Shown here one piece after another: positions 42,648-62,441 of a DNA stretch of 64,000 bases. The notes under the pieces are model-generated. The model did no database searches. It was given only the letters and a program-made list of their open reading frames with translations, and was not told where the DNA came from. The position numbers and the translations under genes are program-made. Where the stretch lies: the NCBI GenBank assembly GCA_963719515.1, contig CAVRCJ010000010.1:256001-320000 (forward strand), in the 5' to 3' direction. How positions within the stretch are numbered: position 1 is the first letter of the stretch; each line of letters starts with the position of its first letter. This DNA is from an uncultured cyanobacterium. Its GTDB lineage: Bacteria; Cyanobacteriota; Cyanobacteriia; CAKZMO01.

Positions 42648-43676
42648 TTGACGCCTCAGGCGGACCTCATTCCCCAAGGCAGAGTCTACCCCCGAAATTC
42701 AGTGGTGAACGGCATGGAGCGAAATCACAACGTCCAAACGCTTTGGCGCAGCGCTGTGCGCATGGCTCGGTTTGCGCGCTTCTCCCAACCCACCCATCCC
42801 CTACCCGCCTGGTGCTTTTGGTCTGTCGCGGCCAATTTGGCGGGCGCGGGGCTCTTGGGGGGGGTGCTGATTTACGGGCAGATTCGCGCCGCTGCCTCGG
42901 CTGATCACGCTGCTAGCGCTAGCGCTGAGGCGGCTAGGCCCTCTGCACCGCACCCCGGTCGTTTAGCAACGTTTTCCCTCGGCGACGGGCAAGCCGCTGC
43001 CTCCAAGACATCCCTAGCGCCCCCAACCTCACTTGAGATTGGTCCTCGGCACAAGCTCGACTATCAAGACTGGCTAACCCTACTGGAGCAGGAGGCGATC
43101 GCGGTTAGCGAGCGATCGCCCGATCGGCTCACCGTTTTGCTGGGCGATTCCATCAGCCTGTGGTTTCCCCCCCACTTGCTCCCCCCTGAGCGCAGCTGGC
43201 TCAATCAGGGGATTTCAGGGGAGGTATCGTCGGGTCTGCTCAAGCGCCTAGACCTGATTGACCAGACCGAGCCTGAGACCGTCTTGGTGATGGTAGGCAT
43301 CAACGATTTGATTCGAGACGTCAGCTCCCAGACGCTGCTGGCCAACTACCAGCTGATTCTAGAAGAGCTGGTAGAGCATCATCCCAAGGCACAGCTTGTG
43401 GTGCAGTCGGTCTTGCCCCACGCTGGGGAAGCGGCCACCTGGGAAGGGGCAGCCCGGCTGCAGGAGATTCCCAACGCCGAAATCCGGGACATTAACGATG
43501 ACCTGAAGGCGATCGCCCTCAAGCACGACGCCCAGTACCTGGACCTCTACTCGCTGTTTAGCGACGGCGAAGGAAACCTGCGCTCGGAACTAACGACCGA
43601 CGGGCTGCACCTCAATACAAGCGGCTACCTGGTTTGGGCGACCGCGCTGCAGGTGTATCCCTTCGAAGATCGGTGA
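42648..43676 (+). CDS. SGNH/GDSL hydrolase
   Basis: GDSIS, NQGISG, GIND, DGLH; start uncertain; stop codon lies in the inserted element. Confidence 0.88.
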   Translation: MTPQADLIPQGRVYPRNSVVNGMERNHNVQTLWRSAVRMARFARFSQPTHPLPAWCFWSVAANLAGAGLLGGVLIYGQIRAAASADHAASASAEAARPSAPHPGRLATFSLGDGQAAASKTSLAPPTSLEIGPRHKLDYQDWLTLLEQEAIAVSERSPDRLTVLLGDSISLWFPPHLLPPERSWLNQGISGEVSSGLLKRLDLIDQTEPETVLVMVGINDLIRDVSSQTLLANYQLILEELVEHHPKAQLVVQSVLPHAGEAATWEGAARLQEIPNAEIRDINDDLKAIALKHDAQYLDLYSLFSDGEGNLRSELTTDGLHLNTSGYLVWATALQVYPFEDR

Positions 43677-43925
43677 CATCCTCCCGACGCTGACAGCAAG
43701 CTGTACAGCGCGGGCTTCCTCAGTGACTCCCAGCTATTGCCGAGACATATCCTGAGATAGGTTTATACTCCGCCTGATGCCCCACGGCAGAGTTTTGAAT
43801 TTTCATCTCCGCGAGGGAGGATACGCACTATGTGTCGCAGATACATTTGCAAACTGAGGAACGGGTGACTTGCAGCTTTCGCCTACGGGCCCGTCACACT
43901 CTTTGCGGGGTGTATCACCTTGCTA
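43673..43925 (-). ncRNA. Putative omegaRNA (TnpB guide scaffold) with 5' extension, copy 1
   Basis: The 3' ~120 nt is homologous to the tnpB 3'/right-end region of the IS with compensatory stems; extended -10-like TGGTATGAT at 43931-43939. Confidence 0.55.
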
Positions 43926-44064
43926 TCTCTATCATACCAACTGCTAGCCTCAGCGCTGAGCGCACTATCCGCTGTGCATCATTTTGCGGGCGCACTTCGG
44001 CTAGCGCGACTCTCATCCCGACGCTCACCCTAACGGGTAGAGCGCGGGGCTTCCTGTCTAGTAG
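43673..44064 (-). mobile_element. 392-bp non-autonomous IS200/IS605 derivative (copy 1)
   Basis: Both ends match the IS at 56171-57970; TTTAG precedes the left end; right end terminates in TCAC; one difference seen versus copy 2. Confidence 0.9.
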
Positions 44065-44123
44065 CTAAACTGGCATGGACTTTGCTAGGCTAAACGCAAT
44101 AGCGCGTACGCCAACGGCCCAGC

Positions 44124-45661: not shown

Positions 45662-45914
45662 GTGACATCCTCCCGACGCTGACAGCAAGCTGTACAGCGC
45701 GGGCTTCCTCAGTGACTCCCAGCTATTGCCGAGACATATCCTGAGATAGGTTTATACTCCGCCTGATGCCCCACGGCAGAGTTTTGAATTTTCATCTCCG
45801 CGAGGGAGGATACGCACTATGTGTCGCAGATACATTTGCAAACTGAGGAACGGGTGACTTGCAGCTTTCGCCTACGGGCCCGTCACACTCTTTGCGGGGT
45901 GTATCACCTTGCTA
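45662..45914 (-). ncRNA. Putative omegaRNA with 5' extension, copy 2
   Basis: Same sequence as copy 1; different downstream guide. Confidence 0.55.
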
Positions 45915-46053
45915 TCTCTATCATACCAACTGCTAGCCTCAGCGCTGAGCGCACTATCCGCTGTGCATCATTTTGCGGGCGCACTTCGGCTAGCGCGACT
46001 CTCATCCCGACGCTCACCCTGACGGGTAGAGCGCGGGGCTTCCTGTCTAGTAG
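45662..46053 (-). mobile_element. 392-bp non-autonomous IS200/IS605 derivative (copy 2)
   Basis: Direct repeat of 43673-44064; inserted immediately 3' of TTTAG. Confidence 0.9.
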
Positions 46054-48120: not shown

Positions 48121-48585
48121 AAAAGGTGAGGTAATGTCCGGAAATAGTTCAAACTTCAATTATATTATTCGGAGGTGTTTGTCAAGGCCCGGAAAGGGCC
48201 AGTTTTGGAGATAGGTCTTCTGATCTTGACTTTTCCCGAAAAAGTGGACACTTCCGAAAAGAGGCTAAATAAAGATGTTCACATGTAGCAAATGTCCTGA
48301 TGCTTAGGACATTTGCGCGCCTCATTACCTATGCTATGTAAAGTTTTGAGTCCACGACACTGTCCTCAGCAATATGGCCAAAGCTATAAATCAGCAGCGA
48401 CGTCGAGAATTTGCAGACTTTTTAGCCAGACCAGCAAGGACGTCCTGGCCTCAATAAGTGGGTTGTGGGCAGACTCTGTGCCTCAGTTCAAGATTGGCGC
48501 GCTTTTTCTCTAGGTGTCCTTAAAGGCAGGGTGAAACACCTTATTTGCCAACGGCACCACGGCGGGTTGAGAGCACAGCCTATCT

Positions 48586-48681
48586 AAACCTTTGGCCAAA
48601 GCCGCTTGTTAAAACCTTTGGCCAAAGCCGCTTGTTAAAACCTTTGGCCAAAGCCGCTTGTTAAAACCTTTGGCCAAAGCC
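48586..48681. repeat. 26-bp tandem repeat (~3.7 copies) duplicating the 3' end of the Omp85 gene
   Basis: AAACCTTTGGCCAAAGCC at 48586, 48612, 48638, 48664, joined by GCTTGTTA. Confidence 0.95.
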
Positions 48682-50514
48682 AAAGTGAAGCCGACTGTCT
48701 CCCTGGTCGTTGAGCCCAAAGTCAGCCCGAATCAGTCCGATAGGAGAACCAAACCGTAGCCCTACCCCATACCCAAACCCTGTTCCCGGCTTATCCCGCA
48801 CCCCGGCAGGATTTCCCGGAACGTCTTCTCCAGTACCCAAATCAGTCCCAATATCGGTAAACAAAACGCCGCCAACAAACCGGTAGATCGGAAAGCGATA
48901 TTCCGCCGACGCTAGCGCATAGCTGCGGCCACTGCCCACATCTCCCGCCCCGTAACCGCGCACTGAGCTGATACCCCCCAGATCAAAAGCCTCGTAGGGC
49001 GGCAAATCACCCAGTATCGTGCCCGCCTGTAGATTAAAGGCAAAGACTTCGGGGTTGCTGAGACGGCCCGAGCCAAACAGATTGACGGGAATGAAGCGGG
49101 CATAGTCCGCCCGCAGACGATTCATGAGGATGCTGCCGCTGCCGATGGGCACCGACTGCTCAGTGCGCAGAGAGAGCACCGAGCCGCCGCTAGGGTTGTT
49201 GGGGTTGATGCGACGATCCTGGGCCAGGCCAAAGCCCAAGGTAAACAGGTCGTCCGTCCCCGAGTCGCTAAAGGTTAGCTGGTTGCCGAGTTCATCTTCA
49301 TTGAGGCGATCGCCGCTGTCATCGCGAATGCTGGTGCGGGCGTAGCTGAAGCCTAGCTCAGCGTCCCAGTTACCCAAAGGCCGCAGCACCGATGCCCCCC
49401 CGCCGATCTGTCGCTCCCGCGCTTCGTCACCGTTAGACAGCAGCACCTCGTCGCTGAAGGTGAGGGACTGACTGCCACTGCGGAACGCTTCTAGGCCGTA
49501 GCCCAGCCGATTAGGTCGACTCTCGCGGTAGGGGCTGGTAAATCCGGTGTTGAAGTTGAGGCCGCGTCCGCCAATCTGCGCTCCTAGTCGCACCGCCTCG
49601 CCCCGCCCGCGAAAGTTACCGTCGCGGAAGTTTAGGGAGCCAAACAGCCCTAGCTCCGTACTCACCCCACCCCCAACGCGAAACGAGCGGGCTAGCTGCT
49701 CCTGCAGGCGGTAGGTGATATCGACCACGGGCTGCGCAGTCGAGTTGTCGACGTCCAGCTCCACCGCCGCCGTCTCAAACACCCCCAGGCTCATCAGCTG
49801 CTGTAGGTCTTGCCGAATGGTGGCCTGGTTAAACACCTCTCCGGGCTGGGTCTCCAATTCCCGGCGCACAAAGTCTTCTTGGGTACGCCCCTCTACCGGT
49901 TCGCCCTCGGCGTCAATGCCGCTGCCGGTCTCATCTAGAAACCGAATCGCAATCTCGCTGATTAGGGGCTCCTCCACCTCCACCGTCAGCCCGCCTGAGG
50001 GCTCCGTCATCAGCCCCACCACGCGGGAGAGAGTGTAGCCGTTATCGAGATACCAGCTGTCGAGGCGATCGGCGATTTGCTCTAGGGTAAGGGGCGTCAG
50101 GGAGCGGCGCAGAAAGGGAGCGGTGACCTCAGCGGCGATGTCCGGCGTCAGCGCCTTGGCCCCCACTAGGGTCAGCGACGGTTGTGAAGCTGGTTCAGGG
50201 TAGGGCAATATGGGGAGCGGATCGGCGGCAGACGGCCCAGCAGACGGCCCCTCAACAGGCAAATCAACTAGCGGCGCTACGCCCTCCGACCTATCAGCAG
50301 GCTGCGGCCCCTCAGCAGGCACACTGCTGGGCGTTTCTTCCGGGTAAGGCAGTACCGCCGAGGGGTCACCGTCGATATCACTCCAGGTCTGCGCCTGAAC
50401 CGGCAGCCCAGCCGCCAGGCCAAGTAGCACTCCAAACCCGACCCAGTTTAATCCGTTCCCATTCACGCCGCTTCCCCCGCTTCTTGACGCCGCTAGTGCT
50501 GAATATTTGGACAA
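48661..50514 (-). CDS. Omp85/BamA-TamA family outer-membrane protein
   Basis: POTRA-like region, SVRGY, SAEYRFPI, C-terminal FGFGQRF; start uncertain. Confidence 0.9.
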   Translation of the reverse strand: MSKYSALAASRSGGSGVNGNGLNWVGFGVLLGLAAGLPVQAQTWSDIDGDPSAVLPYPEETPSSVPAEGPQPADRSEGVAPLVDLPVEGPSAGPSAADPLPILPYPEPASQPSLTLVGAKALTPDIAAEVTAPFLRRSLTPLTLEQIADRLDSWYLDNGYTLSRVVGLMTEPSGGLTVEVEEPLISEIAIRFLDETGSGIDAEGEPVEGRTQEDFVRRELETQPGEVFNQATIRQDLQQLMSLGVFETAAVELDVDNSTAQPVVDITYRLQEQLARSFRVGGGVSTELGLFGSLNFRDGNFRGRGEAVRLGAQIGGRGLNFNTGFTSPYRESRPNRLGYGLEAFRSGSQSLTFSDEVLLSNGDEARERQIGGGASVLRPLGNWDAELGFSYARTSIRDDSGDRLNEDELGNQLTFSDSGTDDLFTLGFGLAQDRRINPNNPSGGSVLSLRTEQSVPIGSGSILMNRLRADYARFIPVNLFGSGRLSNPEVFAFNLQAGTILGDLPPYEAFDLGGISSVRGYGAGDVGSGRSYALASAEYRFPIYRFVGGVLFTDIGTDLGTGEDVPGNPAGVRDKPGTGFGYGVGLRFGSPIGLIRADFGLNDQGDSRLHFGFGQRF

Positions 50515-56112: not shown

Positions 56113-56216
56113 TGCCCATTTCCCTCGCTCCTACGCCGCTAGGGTACCCGGGATAGGAGAAGAGACAACTGTGACATCCTCCCGACGCTGATGCTACGCA
56201 TACAGCGCGGGCTTCC

Positions 56217-57413
56217 TCAGTGACTCCCAGCTACCGCTGAGACATTTCCTGAGAGATTAAGGGCTTGATGTCCCACAGCCCTATTCAATAGGTTGATAGC
56301 CGCGTTGTGGTCGCGACAGATCGTTAAGCCGCATGACGGGCAACTATGGACCCGATCGGCCAGCGTCTTTGGTACCCGCTCACCACAACCCGAGCAATCA
56401 ATGCTGGTTCCGCGTGGGTTCTCAGCGATGGTCATCTTTCCAGCTTTCGCGGCTTTGAAAGAGCCTATCTCCAAGAATGTACCCCATGCGGCATCAGCGA
56501 TTGACTTTGCCAGTCTGGTTCGAGCAAGTCCTTTGATGTTGAGCTTTTCATGAGCGACAACATCGTACTTTGAGAACAGCCAATCCCACACCTTAGAAAA
56601 GAAATCACGACGCTGACGCGATATCTTTAGATGTAGTTTGGCGATGCGATTTACCTGCTTACGCCAGCGGTTAGAGCCCTTCTTCTGTCTCGATAGCTGC
56701 CGCTGCAGCTTGGATAGCTGCCGCTCTGAGCGTCGAAAGAACTGAGGGATAGGAACGCTCTCACCGTCACTGGTAACCAAGAAATCCTTCAGCCCAACGT
56801 CAACACCGACAGACTTAGCCCTATCGACATCCGGAGTAAGCATCGGAACGGCATTGTTTTCCAGTAACAGGCTCACATACCAACCATCTGCTTTGCGAGT
56901 CACCTTGGCCGTTTTGACAGTAAACCCATCAGGTATCGGGCGATGAAGGATTAGCTTCACCTGGCCAATCTTAGGCAGGGTAATACGACTTCCATCGATG
57001 CAGTCAGGTTTCATCTGCGGGAACGTGAACGTCCTGTAGCGCCCCGCGCCTTTGAACCGAGGCTTGCCGCTACGCTTACCATTCCTATCACCTTTGATGA
57101 AACGCTCGAACGTCTGCTTTACCTGCTTCGTCACCTCCTGAAGCGCTTGTGAATGCAAATCTTTGTACCAGGGCCGCTCTCGCTTGAGAGGTACTAGGCT
57201 AGCCTTCTGGCTGTAGTAATTAGGATTATCTTTGAGTGGCGCAAGGCTACAGGTGAGTGGGCAGGCGTTGACCGAACAGCGGTTCATCTCCCACCAGTCG
57301 AAGCGCTCAGCCAGCAACCAGTTGTACTGTGCCCGAAGCATATCTAGCCATCGGGTCATGGTAACCGTTTGCTCAGCCGTTGGGCGTAACCTGTACTGAT
57401 GGGTGATTTTCAC
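56217..57413 (-). CDS. tnpB: RNA-guided endonuclease TnpB
   Basis: YRLRPT, GVDVGL, AHEKLN, CSGC...CPSC, RDHNAA; RuvC D-E-D intact. Confidence 0.95.
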   Translation of the reverse strand: MKITHQYRLRPTAEQTVTMTRWLDMLRAQYNWLLAERFDWWEMNRCSVNACPLTCSLAPLKDNPNYYSQKASLVPLKRERPWYKDLHSQALQEVTKQVKQTFERFIKGDRNGKRSGKPRFKGAGRYRTFTFPQMKPDCIDGSRITLPKIGQVKLILHRPIPDGFTVKTAKVTRKADGWYVSLLLENNAVPMLTPDVDRAKSVGVDVGLKDFLVTSDGESVPIPQFFRRSERQLSKLQRQLSRQKKGSNRWRKQVNRIAKLHLKISRQRRDFFSKVWDWLFSKYDVVAHEKLNIKGLARTRLAKSIADAAWGTFLEIGSFKAAKAGKMTIAENPRGTSIDCSGCGERVPKTLADRVHSCPSCGLTICRDHNAAINLLNRAVGHQALNLSGNVSAVAGSH

Positions 57414-57466
57414 TACTGCGTCTAAGTCAGTGATATCATAATAGCATACGCTGATTTCGATGCACC

Positions 57467-57946
57467 ATGAAAAATGACTTTGTTTCTAGCGGTCGCTCAA
57501 TTTCAGACCTTAAGGCCCATCTGGTTTTGACGACGAAATACTGCCGTAAGGTTTTTACCGAAGAAATGATACGGCGACTTCTAGAGGTTGTCGGAGATCT
57601 GTGCGAGAAGTGGGACTGCAAGATGATTGAGTTCAACGGAGAGGCCGACCACGTTCATCTGCTGTTTCAGTATTATCCGCAGATGGAGCTACCCAAGTTC
57701 GTCAGTAATTTGAAGTCTGTTTCCAGCCGCAGGCTGAGGTCGGAGTTCGCGGAGCGAGTAGACCAGTTCTACTGGAAGTCTGTTCTCTGGAACGAATCGT
57801 ACTTTATCGCCAGTTGTGGCGGGGTCACTGTCTCTGTGCTGAAACGGTACATTGAGCAGCAGGACGCCCCGGAGATGGGTGCTTCTGGGGCATTGAACCC
57901 CGTCAGCACCCGCGACTCTCATCCCGACGCTCACCCTAGCGGGTAG
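57467..57946 (+). CDS. tnpA: Y1 HUH transposase TnpA
   Basis: HLVLTTKY, DHVHLL (HUH), KRYIEQQ (catalytic Tyr). Confidence 0.95.
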   Translation: MKNDFVSSGRSISDLKAHLVLTTKYCRKVFTEEMIRRLLEVVGDLCEKWDCKMIEFNGEADHVHLLFQYYPQMELPKFVSNLKSVSSRRLRSEFAERVDQFYWKSVLWNESYFIASCGGVTVSVLKRYIEQQDAPEMGASGALNPVSTRDSHPDAHPSG

Positions 57947-57978
57947 ATCGCGGGGCTTCCCGTCTAGCAGCTAAAGCG

Positions 57979-59343
57979 CTAGCCGAGGGTCAGCGCCAGC
58001 TGCTTACGGGCCACGGGCCGCCCCGTAAGGCTGAAGGCCCTAACTTCGGTGATCTCTACGTCCACCAGCTGGCCCTGTAGATCCGAATTGCCTGCGAAAA
58101 ATACCAGCCGGTTGCCTCGGGTCCGCCCCATAACCTGAGCCGCATCTCTTGGGTTAGCCCCCTCCACCAGCACCTCTTCCACTCGGCCCGCGTAGCGCTG
58201 CGATCGCTCTGCCGCCTTCACCTCCACGAGGCGATTGAGCCGCTGGAGGCGATCGCTCTTGACCGCCTCAGACAGCTGGTTTTCCCAGAGGGCAGCGGGG
58301 GTGCCGGGGCGGGGAGAATAGGCCGCCGTATTGAGGAGATCGAAGCCAACCTCATCGACAAGGGTCATCGTCTGCTGGAACTGCTCCTCTGTCTCTCCGG
58401 GAAAGCCCACAATGGCGTCGGCGCTGATGGCCGCGTCAGGCATCAGCCCGCGAATCTTGTCGATGATGCGCCGGTAGCGATCGCGGGTGTAGCCCCGACC
58501 CATGGCCTTGAGCAGGTCGTTGTCCCCCGACTGGAAGGGAATGTGAAAATGCTCGCACACCTTGGGCAGCTCGGCGCAGGCGCGAATCAGCCGCTCGGTG
58601 AAGTAGCGGGGGTGGCTGGTGGCAAAACGAATGCGATCGATGCCGGGGCTATCGTGGACAAAGTAGAGCAGGTCGGTGAGGGTGTGCTGGTGGCGGCCTT
58701 CAGCTGTCGAGCCAGGCAGGTCACGGCCATAGGCGTCGATGTTTTGCCCCAGCAGCGTCACCTCTCGGTAGCCCTGCTGCCCTAGCGCCTCCATTTCAGC
58801 GCGGATGGCCTCCGGGGTACGAGACTGCTCTACGCCCCTCACCCCCGGCACTACGCAGTAGGTGCAGCGTTCGTTGCAGCCGTAAATCACGTTTACCCAG
58901 GCGCTAACCTTGCTGTCGCGCCGGGGCTTGGTAATGTCCTCCATGATATGGACAGGCTCAGTCGCAACCACCTGTTCCCCGGCCTCCACCTGCTCTAGCA
59001 GATCCTGCAGCCGATTAGCATGCTGAGGCCCCATCACCAGGTCTAGTTCGGGGACTCGCCGCAGCAGGGCTTCACCCTCTTGCTGAGCCACGCAGCCCGC
59101 CAGTACCAGCGTCAGCGTCGGCTCGCTCTGCTTGCGTTTGGCCTGTCGTCCCAGATAGGAATAGACTTTTTGCTCGGCGTTGTCGCGGATAGTGCAGGTG
59201 TTGTAGAGGACTAAATCTGCCTTTTCCGGCGATGCCTCAAACTGGTAGCCCATTGACTCCAGAATTCCGGCCATGCGCTCGGAGTCGGCTTTGTTCATCT
59301 GGCAGCCGAAGGTGGTGATGTGGTAGCGGCGGGGTGCAGTCAT
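57979..59343 (-). CDS. miaB: tRNA-2-methylthio-N6-dimethylallyladenosine synthase
   Basis: [21 protein letters not shown]-terminal TRAM domain. Confidence 0.96.
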
Positions 59344-62368: not shown

Positions 62369-62441
62369 CCCCCTCTAACGCCCCCTTGGAAAGGGAGAGA
62401 ATTGAGCTTTCCTCCATTCCAAGGGGGGACTGAGGGGGGGG
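62369..62441. repeat. C/G-run branched palindromic dispersed repeat (degenerate)
   Basis: CCCCCTCTAACGCCCCCTTGGAAAGGGAG...TTCCAAGGGGGGACTGAGGGGGG. Confidence 0.6.

Follow-up and report, generated by a model that had tools for sequence, protein, structure and literature searches.

A gene-less IS200/IS605 element of an uncultured cyanobacterium with a conserved, covarying hairpin predicted upstream of its omega-RNA scaffold

Results

A 392-bp element in 64,000 nucleotides of DNA from an uncultured cyanobacterium (the whole stretch is referred to as the window) is a mobile, gene-less IS200/IS605 element (PATE), in which a 77-nt hairpin, domain I, lies between a candidate promoter and a TnpB-type omega-RNA scaffold. 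Judged by its covariation, domain I is a selected RNA structure. As to its role we are tentative, and assign a rough probability of 45% to the reading that the leader protects an untranslated pre-guide and helps to load TnpB in trans. The original prediction had placed a promoter and a structured 5' RNA at 43793..44005. This module is real, its coordinates and listed motifs are found in the sequence, including the A-rich linker just before the scaffold, and the second copy lies 1989 nt downstream with one base different, outside the module.

A mobile, gene-less element and its candidate helper

The element, its ends and the related full insertion sequence (IS) are located in the window as follows.

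43673..44064, minus strand: whole gene-less IS200/IS605 element (PATE), copy 1, 392 bp; from the 53-copy comparison
45662..46053, minus strand: element copy 2, with domain I at 45829-45905
44065..44068, minus strand: TTAG target motif, unduplicated; 5' of all 53 copies and of the IS at 56171-57980
44017..44049, minus strand: left-end subterminal hairpin; from similarity to the left ends of tnpB elements
43673..43792, minus strand: omega-RNA scaffold, with the right-end hairpin at 43683-43714 and the TCAC end; from tnpB-tail similarity and covariation
43653..43672, minus strand: presumed flank-derived guide, by analogy to known TnpB systems
56171..57980, minus strand: IS605-type element, candidate trans helper (Pfam PF01385, PF07282, PF12323, PF01797)
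56217-57413, minus strand: tnpB of the IS605-type element
57467-57946, plus strand: tnpA of the IS605-type element

According to a blastn search of the whole host genome, the full-length element is present in 53 copies with 96-100% identity and unrelated flanks. All 53 are preceded by TTAG and end in TCAC, the right flanks are unrelated and there is no target duplication, while the orthologous insertion site is empty in genome G002 (locus L253). Because of these 53 insertion sites and the empty orthologous site, the element is regarded as mobile. Its coding capacity is restricted to a single frame of 78 codons on the opposite strand, and read-through of the sense frame gives no Pfam match. The near-terminal palindromes are related to those of IS605-type elements and are not accompanied by terminal inverted repeats, and insertion occurs 3' of a fixed tetranucleotide, both of which are features of PATEs. 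The two subterminal hairpins resemble each other as a direct repeat. No match to the element was found in plasmid and phage collections.

By blastn, tnpB elements of the host genome share the left end at 93-95% identity, and the IS at 56171-57980 shares the last 85 nt at 87%. This IS, which has the same TTAG target and the same TCAC end as the 392-bp element, is apparently intact, and from the shared ends we infer that TnpA from a full IS moves the element. The host genome also holds elements with the same ends and tnpB that are devoid of tnpA (C10:705500-707020 and about 15 similar elements of 1.49 kb), and three further gene-less mini families with a -10 box, a differing leader and a differing scaffold. 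Among its gene-less minis are a family of about 430 bp with 6 copies and one variant (L098, L099, L104), a family of about 455 bp with 17 copies (L100), and L101-L103, so that the mini-elements in the host genome number at least 78. Elsewhere, L109 (G052, about 1-400) and L114 (G291, about 1300-1600) are gene-less with a similar scaffold start and unrelated leaders, for which the models described below give no convincing match.

Copy 1 provides, at window positions 43671-43676, the stop codon of an upstream gene (42648-43676) labelled lipase-like by eye. Because the target motif, read on the other strand, gives a stop at the same codon, the insertion leaves the lipase-like protein unchanged. 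Separately, 10 of the 14 partial matches that were viewed are units of about 93 nt, which have the right end, are devoid of the left end and begin directly after TTAG (L200, L201, L205, L206, L209, L210, L213 at about 1501-1593, L202, L214 and L217, carried by genomes G050, G022, G193 and G076). Their start corresponds to the position just behind an internal TCAC of the full mini-elements, and they look like donor joints after TnpA excision from the left end to the internal TCAC, which would remove promoter and leader; alternatively they look like tiny one-hairpin elements. Excision remnants at the internal TCAC sites of the 53-copy family number zero in the host genome. One further locus, L126 (G076), has a short tandem triplication in the loop of its right-end hairpin. 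The window contains two other repeats: a tandem repeat with a 26-nt period at 48560-48681, upstream of an outer-membrane protein gene (48661-50514), and a palindromic GC-rich sequence at 62370-62438, which model R3 scores at 17.6 bits on the minus strand and 12.7 bits on the plus strand; the apex is absent from it and it is probably an unrelated small repeat.

Scaffold and guide

The 3' part of the element is homologous to the 3' end of tnpB and carries a subterminal hairpin that stops 10 nt before the TCAC end, as expected for an omega-RNA scaffold. Across four minis and five tnpB elements, 12 of 34 scaffold pairs show double changes, and on this comparison the region is a covarying TnpB-type scaffold that derives from a tnpB tail. 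Domain I is joined to two scaffold types, one being that of the IS at 56171-57980, and the second resembling the tail of a TnpB (L218) with 49% identity to the window TnpB protein. When the 53 guides were compared with the host genome, none had a TTAG with a 12-nt match elsewhere; at 10 nt, 3 of the 53 are self-targeting.

The promoter is probably inherited from tnpB elements

The module divides into an upstream inverted repeat, a promoter-like box and the leader proper.

43943..44005, minus strand: imperfect inverted repeat, from the left end to the -10 box; from fold energy against shuffles
43931..43939, minus strand: extended -10 box; from the conserved TAnnnT offset
43840..43916, minus strand: domain I, 77-nt imperfect hairpin; from covariation and model R3
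43916-43911 with 43845-43840, minus strand: basal stem of domain I
between basal stem and apex, minus strand: middle stem of domain I, with AG bulge
43895-43861, minus strand: near-invariant apex of domain I
43820..43839, minus strand: variable linker, 15-23 nt in homologues, with a small hairpin in the host's subfamily only
43807..43819, minus strand: small CUCC/GGAG hairpin, in 15 of 16 homologues
43793..43806, minus strand: A-rich linker, with a weak match to tnpB 3' coding sequence

The extended -10 box reads TGGTATGAT at 43939-43931 on the minus strand and predicts a transcription start near 43924. A strict scan for -35/-10 promoters did not list this site. The promoter-like box claimed by the original prediction is borne out by comparison: a TAnnnT hexamer is found at a fixed offset from the core in 15 of 16 homologous elements, 38-42 nt before it in five of six with short leaders and 68-71 nt before it in all ten with long leaders. 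The same prediction had called the promoter “dedicated”, which is not supported, since the same type of box lies 55-58 nt behind the left-end hairpin in 12 tnpA-less tnpB elements of the host genome (73-76 nt in the minis). A tnpB promoter that was inherited is therefore the simpler explanation, and the candidate promoter is probably of this kind and not new.

Of the structured leader proposed to stand in the place of tnpB, the conserved and covarying part holds, while the first 62 nt (43943-44005) lie upstream of the -10 box and would therefore not be in the RNA. This inverted repeat folds with a z-score of -2.59 (3 of 200 shuffles), and a similar sequence is seen by eye in two other mini families of the host genome. 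Because it is upstream of the predicted start, it probably acts at the DNA level, as an operator or an extension of the left end.

Domain I is supported by covariation

For the interval 43793..44005 as originally called, the fold is no more stable than those of shuffles (z -0.86, with 33 of 200 equally stable), and it is the 77-nt hairpin within it that covaries. Domain I alone gives a z-score of -2.27 (4 of 200 shuffles) and its opposite strand -1.84, and the values are -0.8 to -2.1 in three homologues and +0.9 to -1.4 for 100-nt windows taken from 17 homologues. The hairpin is not unusually stable, and since these values are unremarkable the case for structure rests on covariation and not on energy.

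Domain I scores 66.9 bits with model R3. Eighteen distinct sequences were aligned on sequence alone, and the alignment was trimmed to the outer limits of the basal stem. In it 91% of the cells pair, compared with 34-47% in slid controls, and double changes occur in 8 of the 24 pairs. The double-change cells number 25 against 6.9 ± 2.1 in shuffles; the 18 sequences are related and fall into few subfamilies, so the double changes stem from a small number of independent events, and the shuffle counts should not be read as probabilities. In the basal stem 95 of 96 cells pair, 80 by Watson-Crick and 15 by G-U pairs with no A-C, a count to which the choice of the best-pairing register for each sequence adds a bias. 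The presence of 15 G-U and absence of A-C cells points to RNA of the minus strand. The apex is 92% identical between elements with mid-scaffolds that are only 49-54%, and linkers that are only 29-48%, identical. Taken together, the comparison argues that domain I is a selected RNA structure. Two apex registers fit every homologue, and the energy model favours the second in 8 of 11 sequences. In G193, which has two copies, the lower stems are kept and the apex is shortened.

The pairings listed in the original prediction differ in how well they are conserved. GATACA/TGTATC is strongly supported. For GC-GAAA-GC the stem is conserved and the GAAA loop is not, and for GTGAC/GTCAC the three inner pairs are conserved and the rest is not, with a pair probability of 0.02 here. 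CTCC/GGAG recurs in 15 of 16 homologues, with four of four pairs in 10 of these 15 and no double change in any. ACGGG/CCCGT, on the other hand, is private to the family of the host genome and absent from the other 15 sequences; it is an alternative helix, created by two apex changes, with a pair probability of about 0.95. The small hairpin pairs CCUCC with GGAG, which we take to be anti-Shine-Dalgarno-like and Shine-Dalgarno-like, respectively. In the host-genome family this GGAG lies directly next to an AUG, the start of a 28-codon frame that matches the TnpB tail. Two further pairings were rejected: a pseudoknot between a CCCC loop and the scaffold start, because the G-rich stretch it would need already pairs within the first, conserved stem of the scaffold and the loop varies, and a stem between GGAG and the scaffold start, which was an artefact of a truncated alignment.

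Domain I is patchy and was seen only in gene-less elements

By blastn the module is present in 2 of 60 other genomes, and a three-sequence model gave 17 matches in 8 of 150 genomes. The match of this model at L132 was dropped because it lies in coding sequence, as were further weak model matches (L189, L192, L257) in or against coding sequence. A pattern made from the apex occurs in 25 of 400 genomes of the class, against two control matches; 13 of these genomes were dropped, four by context and nine on the matched letters alone, the nine presumably reading as a Walker A motif. Domain I is thus kept in 12 of the 400 sampled genomes, in 7 families. In metagenomes 7 of 18 matches are real loci, and among viral contigs neither of two. 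Model R2, applied to 160 hand-picked genomes of the 400-genome sample, added G193 and two chance matches, and model R3 found only G085 and one chance match in 151 genomes of the phylum. Since so few genomes are matched, the distribution of domain I is patchy.

Among 18 loci compared, the right end is reached 207-235 nt after the core in 14, and two others end in a variant right end; the remaining two loci are cut by contig ends, and several have no visible left end through truncation or contig ends. None of the 18 loci with domain I has a tnpB gene at this place. In agreement with this, R2 and R3 detected no domain I in the tnpB loci that were scanned, nor in the host genome outside the 53 copies; all instances of domain I that were seen are in gene-less elements. 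R1, R2 and R3 give no match to the leaders of the host genome's other three mini families, and because the resemblance is by eye only we do not claim homology with them. By eye, a 5' pattern was common to this and another mini family, but it was discarded: its four viral matches are all chance, and of 48 matches in genomes four lie in mini-elements, one of which is this module.

A search of Rfam 15, at gathering thresholds and at E-values up to 10, retrieved nothing relevant for the module (the best hit is a ciliate snoRNA with an E-value of 8.5), and there was no match to its known riboswitch or small ribozyme families. Nor did Rfam match the elements of nine loci, four of them with domain I. 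Domain I is an uncatalogued RNA domain, modular and exchangeable in that it is joined to two scaffold types.

Three RNA runs contain 5% of the sequence words, and matching at 80% likeness yields five contig pieces, which come from relatives. One RNA-run contig of 238 nt runs from 43882 through the right end and 26 bases into the flank, with DNA carry-over possible. Because such contigs show neither start, strand nor level, we do not count it as evidence of expression.

Discussion

A model for the leader

In IS200/IS605 elements excision of the top strand by TnpA leaves no scar, and TnpB, directed by a flank-derived guide, cuts the empty site, upon which recombination restores the element; the omega-RNAs of PATEs are expected to be used in trans with TnpB (10.1101/2023.03.14.532601, in the text available). 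TnpB trims the 5' side of its precursor, leaving mature scaffolds of 79-466 nt, and a piece of tnpB mRNA can inhibit the guide (PMC10278001, likewise). From this trimming and inhibition we infer that the leader substitutes for the mRNA context, combining protection from decay with access for TnpB.

We hypothesize that the PATE keeps the ends, the promoter and the guide scaffold of a tnpA-less tnpB element, with a conserved RNA leader in place of the gene, and that it would be mobilised by the TnpA of a full IS. The transcript would be an RNA of about 250 nt followed by a flank-derived guide. A 5' hairpin protects RNA from decay, and the long hairpin found here could shield the untranslated RNA from 5'-dependent decay and prevent mispairing between the scaffold and the 5' part of the RNA. 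The invariant apex may provide a specific contact, most simply with TnpB, which would help the RNA to compete for nuclease from other elements. TnpB would then trim the leader near 43790 and cut the element's own empty site, so that recombination could restore the element. The loading step is an assumption, made because a protective hairpin alone needs no invariant apex. Several observations count against the model as a whole. The strict promoter scan misses the -10 site, and the hairpin is not unusually stable; the apex is altered in the host-genome family, which nevertheless has 53 copies; draft assemblies, searched with one query each, yielded no matching TnpB in G085 or G050 (clade-B TnpB query, E 1e-15) and no TnpA in G050 or G259; and the other three mini families of the host genome bear the leaders that R2 and R3 do not match.

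Alternative readings

Could domain I instead pass between gene-less transposons with different TnpB scaffolds and dock a second protein or act as a switch? We consider this doubtful, and each of its two halves, taken in its own specific form, more so. A leader retained on the mature RNA could recruit a second factor, be it TnpA, a host protein or the small repressor of the element, with an effect beyond or other than cutting of the empty site. The near-invariant apex on two different scaffolds, its carriage in genomes where no matching TnpB was found and the existence of mature omega-RNAs of up to 466 nt (PMC10278001, in the text available) are in line with this, but no partner gene accompanies the element, scaffold and ends are ordinary, and the apex is altered in the host-genome family and shortened in G193, so that we regard it as unlikely. 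The leader might also act as a switch, keeping the guide inactive or its quantity low as long as neither a signal nor TnpB is bound, and so spare the host many guides. The two apex registers that fit all homologues would suit such a device, as would the 5-bp complements of the apex loops in the right-end hairpin of most homologues and the known cis-inhibition by mRNA sequence (PMC10278001, in the text available). These complements, however, are short, GC-rich and without covariation, the leader contains no terminator-like site and no riboswitch family matches it; a switch thus seems less likely again.

The protective and loading leader is also to be set against readings in which the module does not work as the 5' part of a guide RNA, or does so in another way. 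The strand that folds is the transposed top strand of the IS608 mechanism (PMC3201880), and a structure in single-stranded DNA might, for example, aid the transpososome on a short element during peel-and-paste transposition; yet the 15 G-T cells of the basal stem fit RNA better and the domain keeps a fixed distance behind a conserved -10 box, which makes a role in DNA improbable. A self-cleaving ribozyme that makes the guide 5' end without TnpB would account for invariant internal-loop bases in a small fold directly 5' of the scaffold, but is more improbable still, given a single unbranched hairpin with no supported pseudoknot, no match to an Rfam ribozyme and a 53-copy family that tolerates apex changes. 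Least probable, and disfavoured by us, is an origin as eroded coding sequence of the tnpB zinc finger or as neutral filler. One frame, with its stops read through, is in register with the tnpB tail and has by eye a similar cysteine spacing, and the original remark that the module shows no visible similarity to tnpA or tnpB of the neighbouring IS is to be qualified in one place. Blastn with the module finds only the 53 copies and not the IS at 56171-57980, but 43777-43812 weakly matches tnpB 3' ends (7.1 bits with a DNA profile, 0 of 200 shuffles; 1 of 200 shuffles for the local alignment), with a DNA-profile match in 2 of 10 homologues tested. This stretch takes in the A-rich linker, which is probably a remnant of eroded tnpB 3' coding sequence near the RuvC-III motif. 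Domain I behaves differently. Ten homologues scored against a protein profile of 20 TnpB C-termini stay within shuffles (96 of 200 score equally high), zinc-finger collinearity with TnpB does not exceed shuffles either, a DNA profile of 20 tnpB ends gives no match in a test that has low power at low scores, comparison with four full IS sequences is equalled by 16 of 200 shuffles, and Pfam gives no match. Moreover, the same apex is joined to tails from two TnpB clades with 49% protein identity, and the stems covary. Decayed tnpA or tnpB coding sequence, the outcome that the original prediction had named as speaking against it, is therefore not what is found in the 77-nt domain, which on these comparisons is not decayed tnpB.

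Comparison with known systems

How standalone omega-RNAs obtain a nuclease made elsewhere is open in the literature, as far as its available text goes, and their role is called unknown in that of PMC10691335. The present element offers a small and direct test, with a 77-nt domain, an invariant apex, natural variants, two scaffold types and an apparently intact candidate helper IS in the window. A leader that stabilises guides or loads them in trans would be a natural part for expressing TnpB guides, and one that docks another factor would represent a new RNA class. If domain I docks a second protein or switches, the elements would be RNA-only parasites that capture or redirect TnpB, and a transposon guide with its own regulatory or recruiting aptamer would constitute an uncatalogued RNA class. 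Should deletion of the leader prove to be without effect, the element would be an ordinary PATE. Literature searches, at the level of titles and the opening lines of abstracts, gave no description of such a leader.

The published texts, as available, allow the following comparisons. Standalone omega-RNAs (PMC10691335) are likewise mobile guide loci without effector or transposase, with a compatible effector in the genome; the 5' domain of our element differs in being unrelated to effector mRNA and common to the scaffolds of two TnpB clades. The pre-omega-RNA of TnpB (AmaTnpB and 59 orthologues; PMC10278001) is also a longer precursor with the scaffold at its 3' side, and 250 nt falls within the range of 79-466 nt, whereas the 5' part of our element is a non-coding conserved fold and not tnpB mRNA. 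IStrons, which combine a group I intron with IS605 or IS607 (PMC13565253), similarly join a structured 5' RNA to an omega-RNA within transposon ends. In contrast, our leader is an 80-nt hairpin behind an internal promoter and the element ends in TCAC and not TCAG; identity with an IStron was rejected, as there is no group I or other Rfam match at E up to 10 and the element ends in C and not in a terminal G. HEARO, RAGATH-18 and other Rfam RNAs of IS200/IS605/IS607 are structured RNAs of the same transposon superfamily as well, but neither the element nor its homologous loci match them in Rfam. With the PATEs of Haloquadratum (PMC3119063) and the PATE-like elements of Geobacillus (10.1101/2023.03.14.532601) our element shares palindromes near the ends that are related to an IS605-type element, the absence of terminal inverted repeats and of target duplication, gene-lessness, homogeneous expansion and an omega-RNA expected to be used in trans. 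Unlike these PATEs, in the text available, it carries a conserved, covarying leader of about 130 nt between promoter and scaffold.
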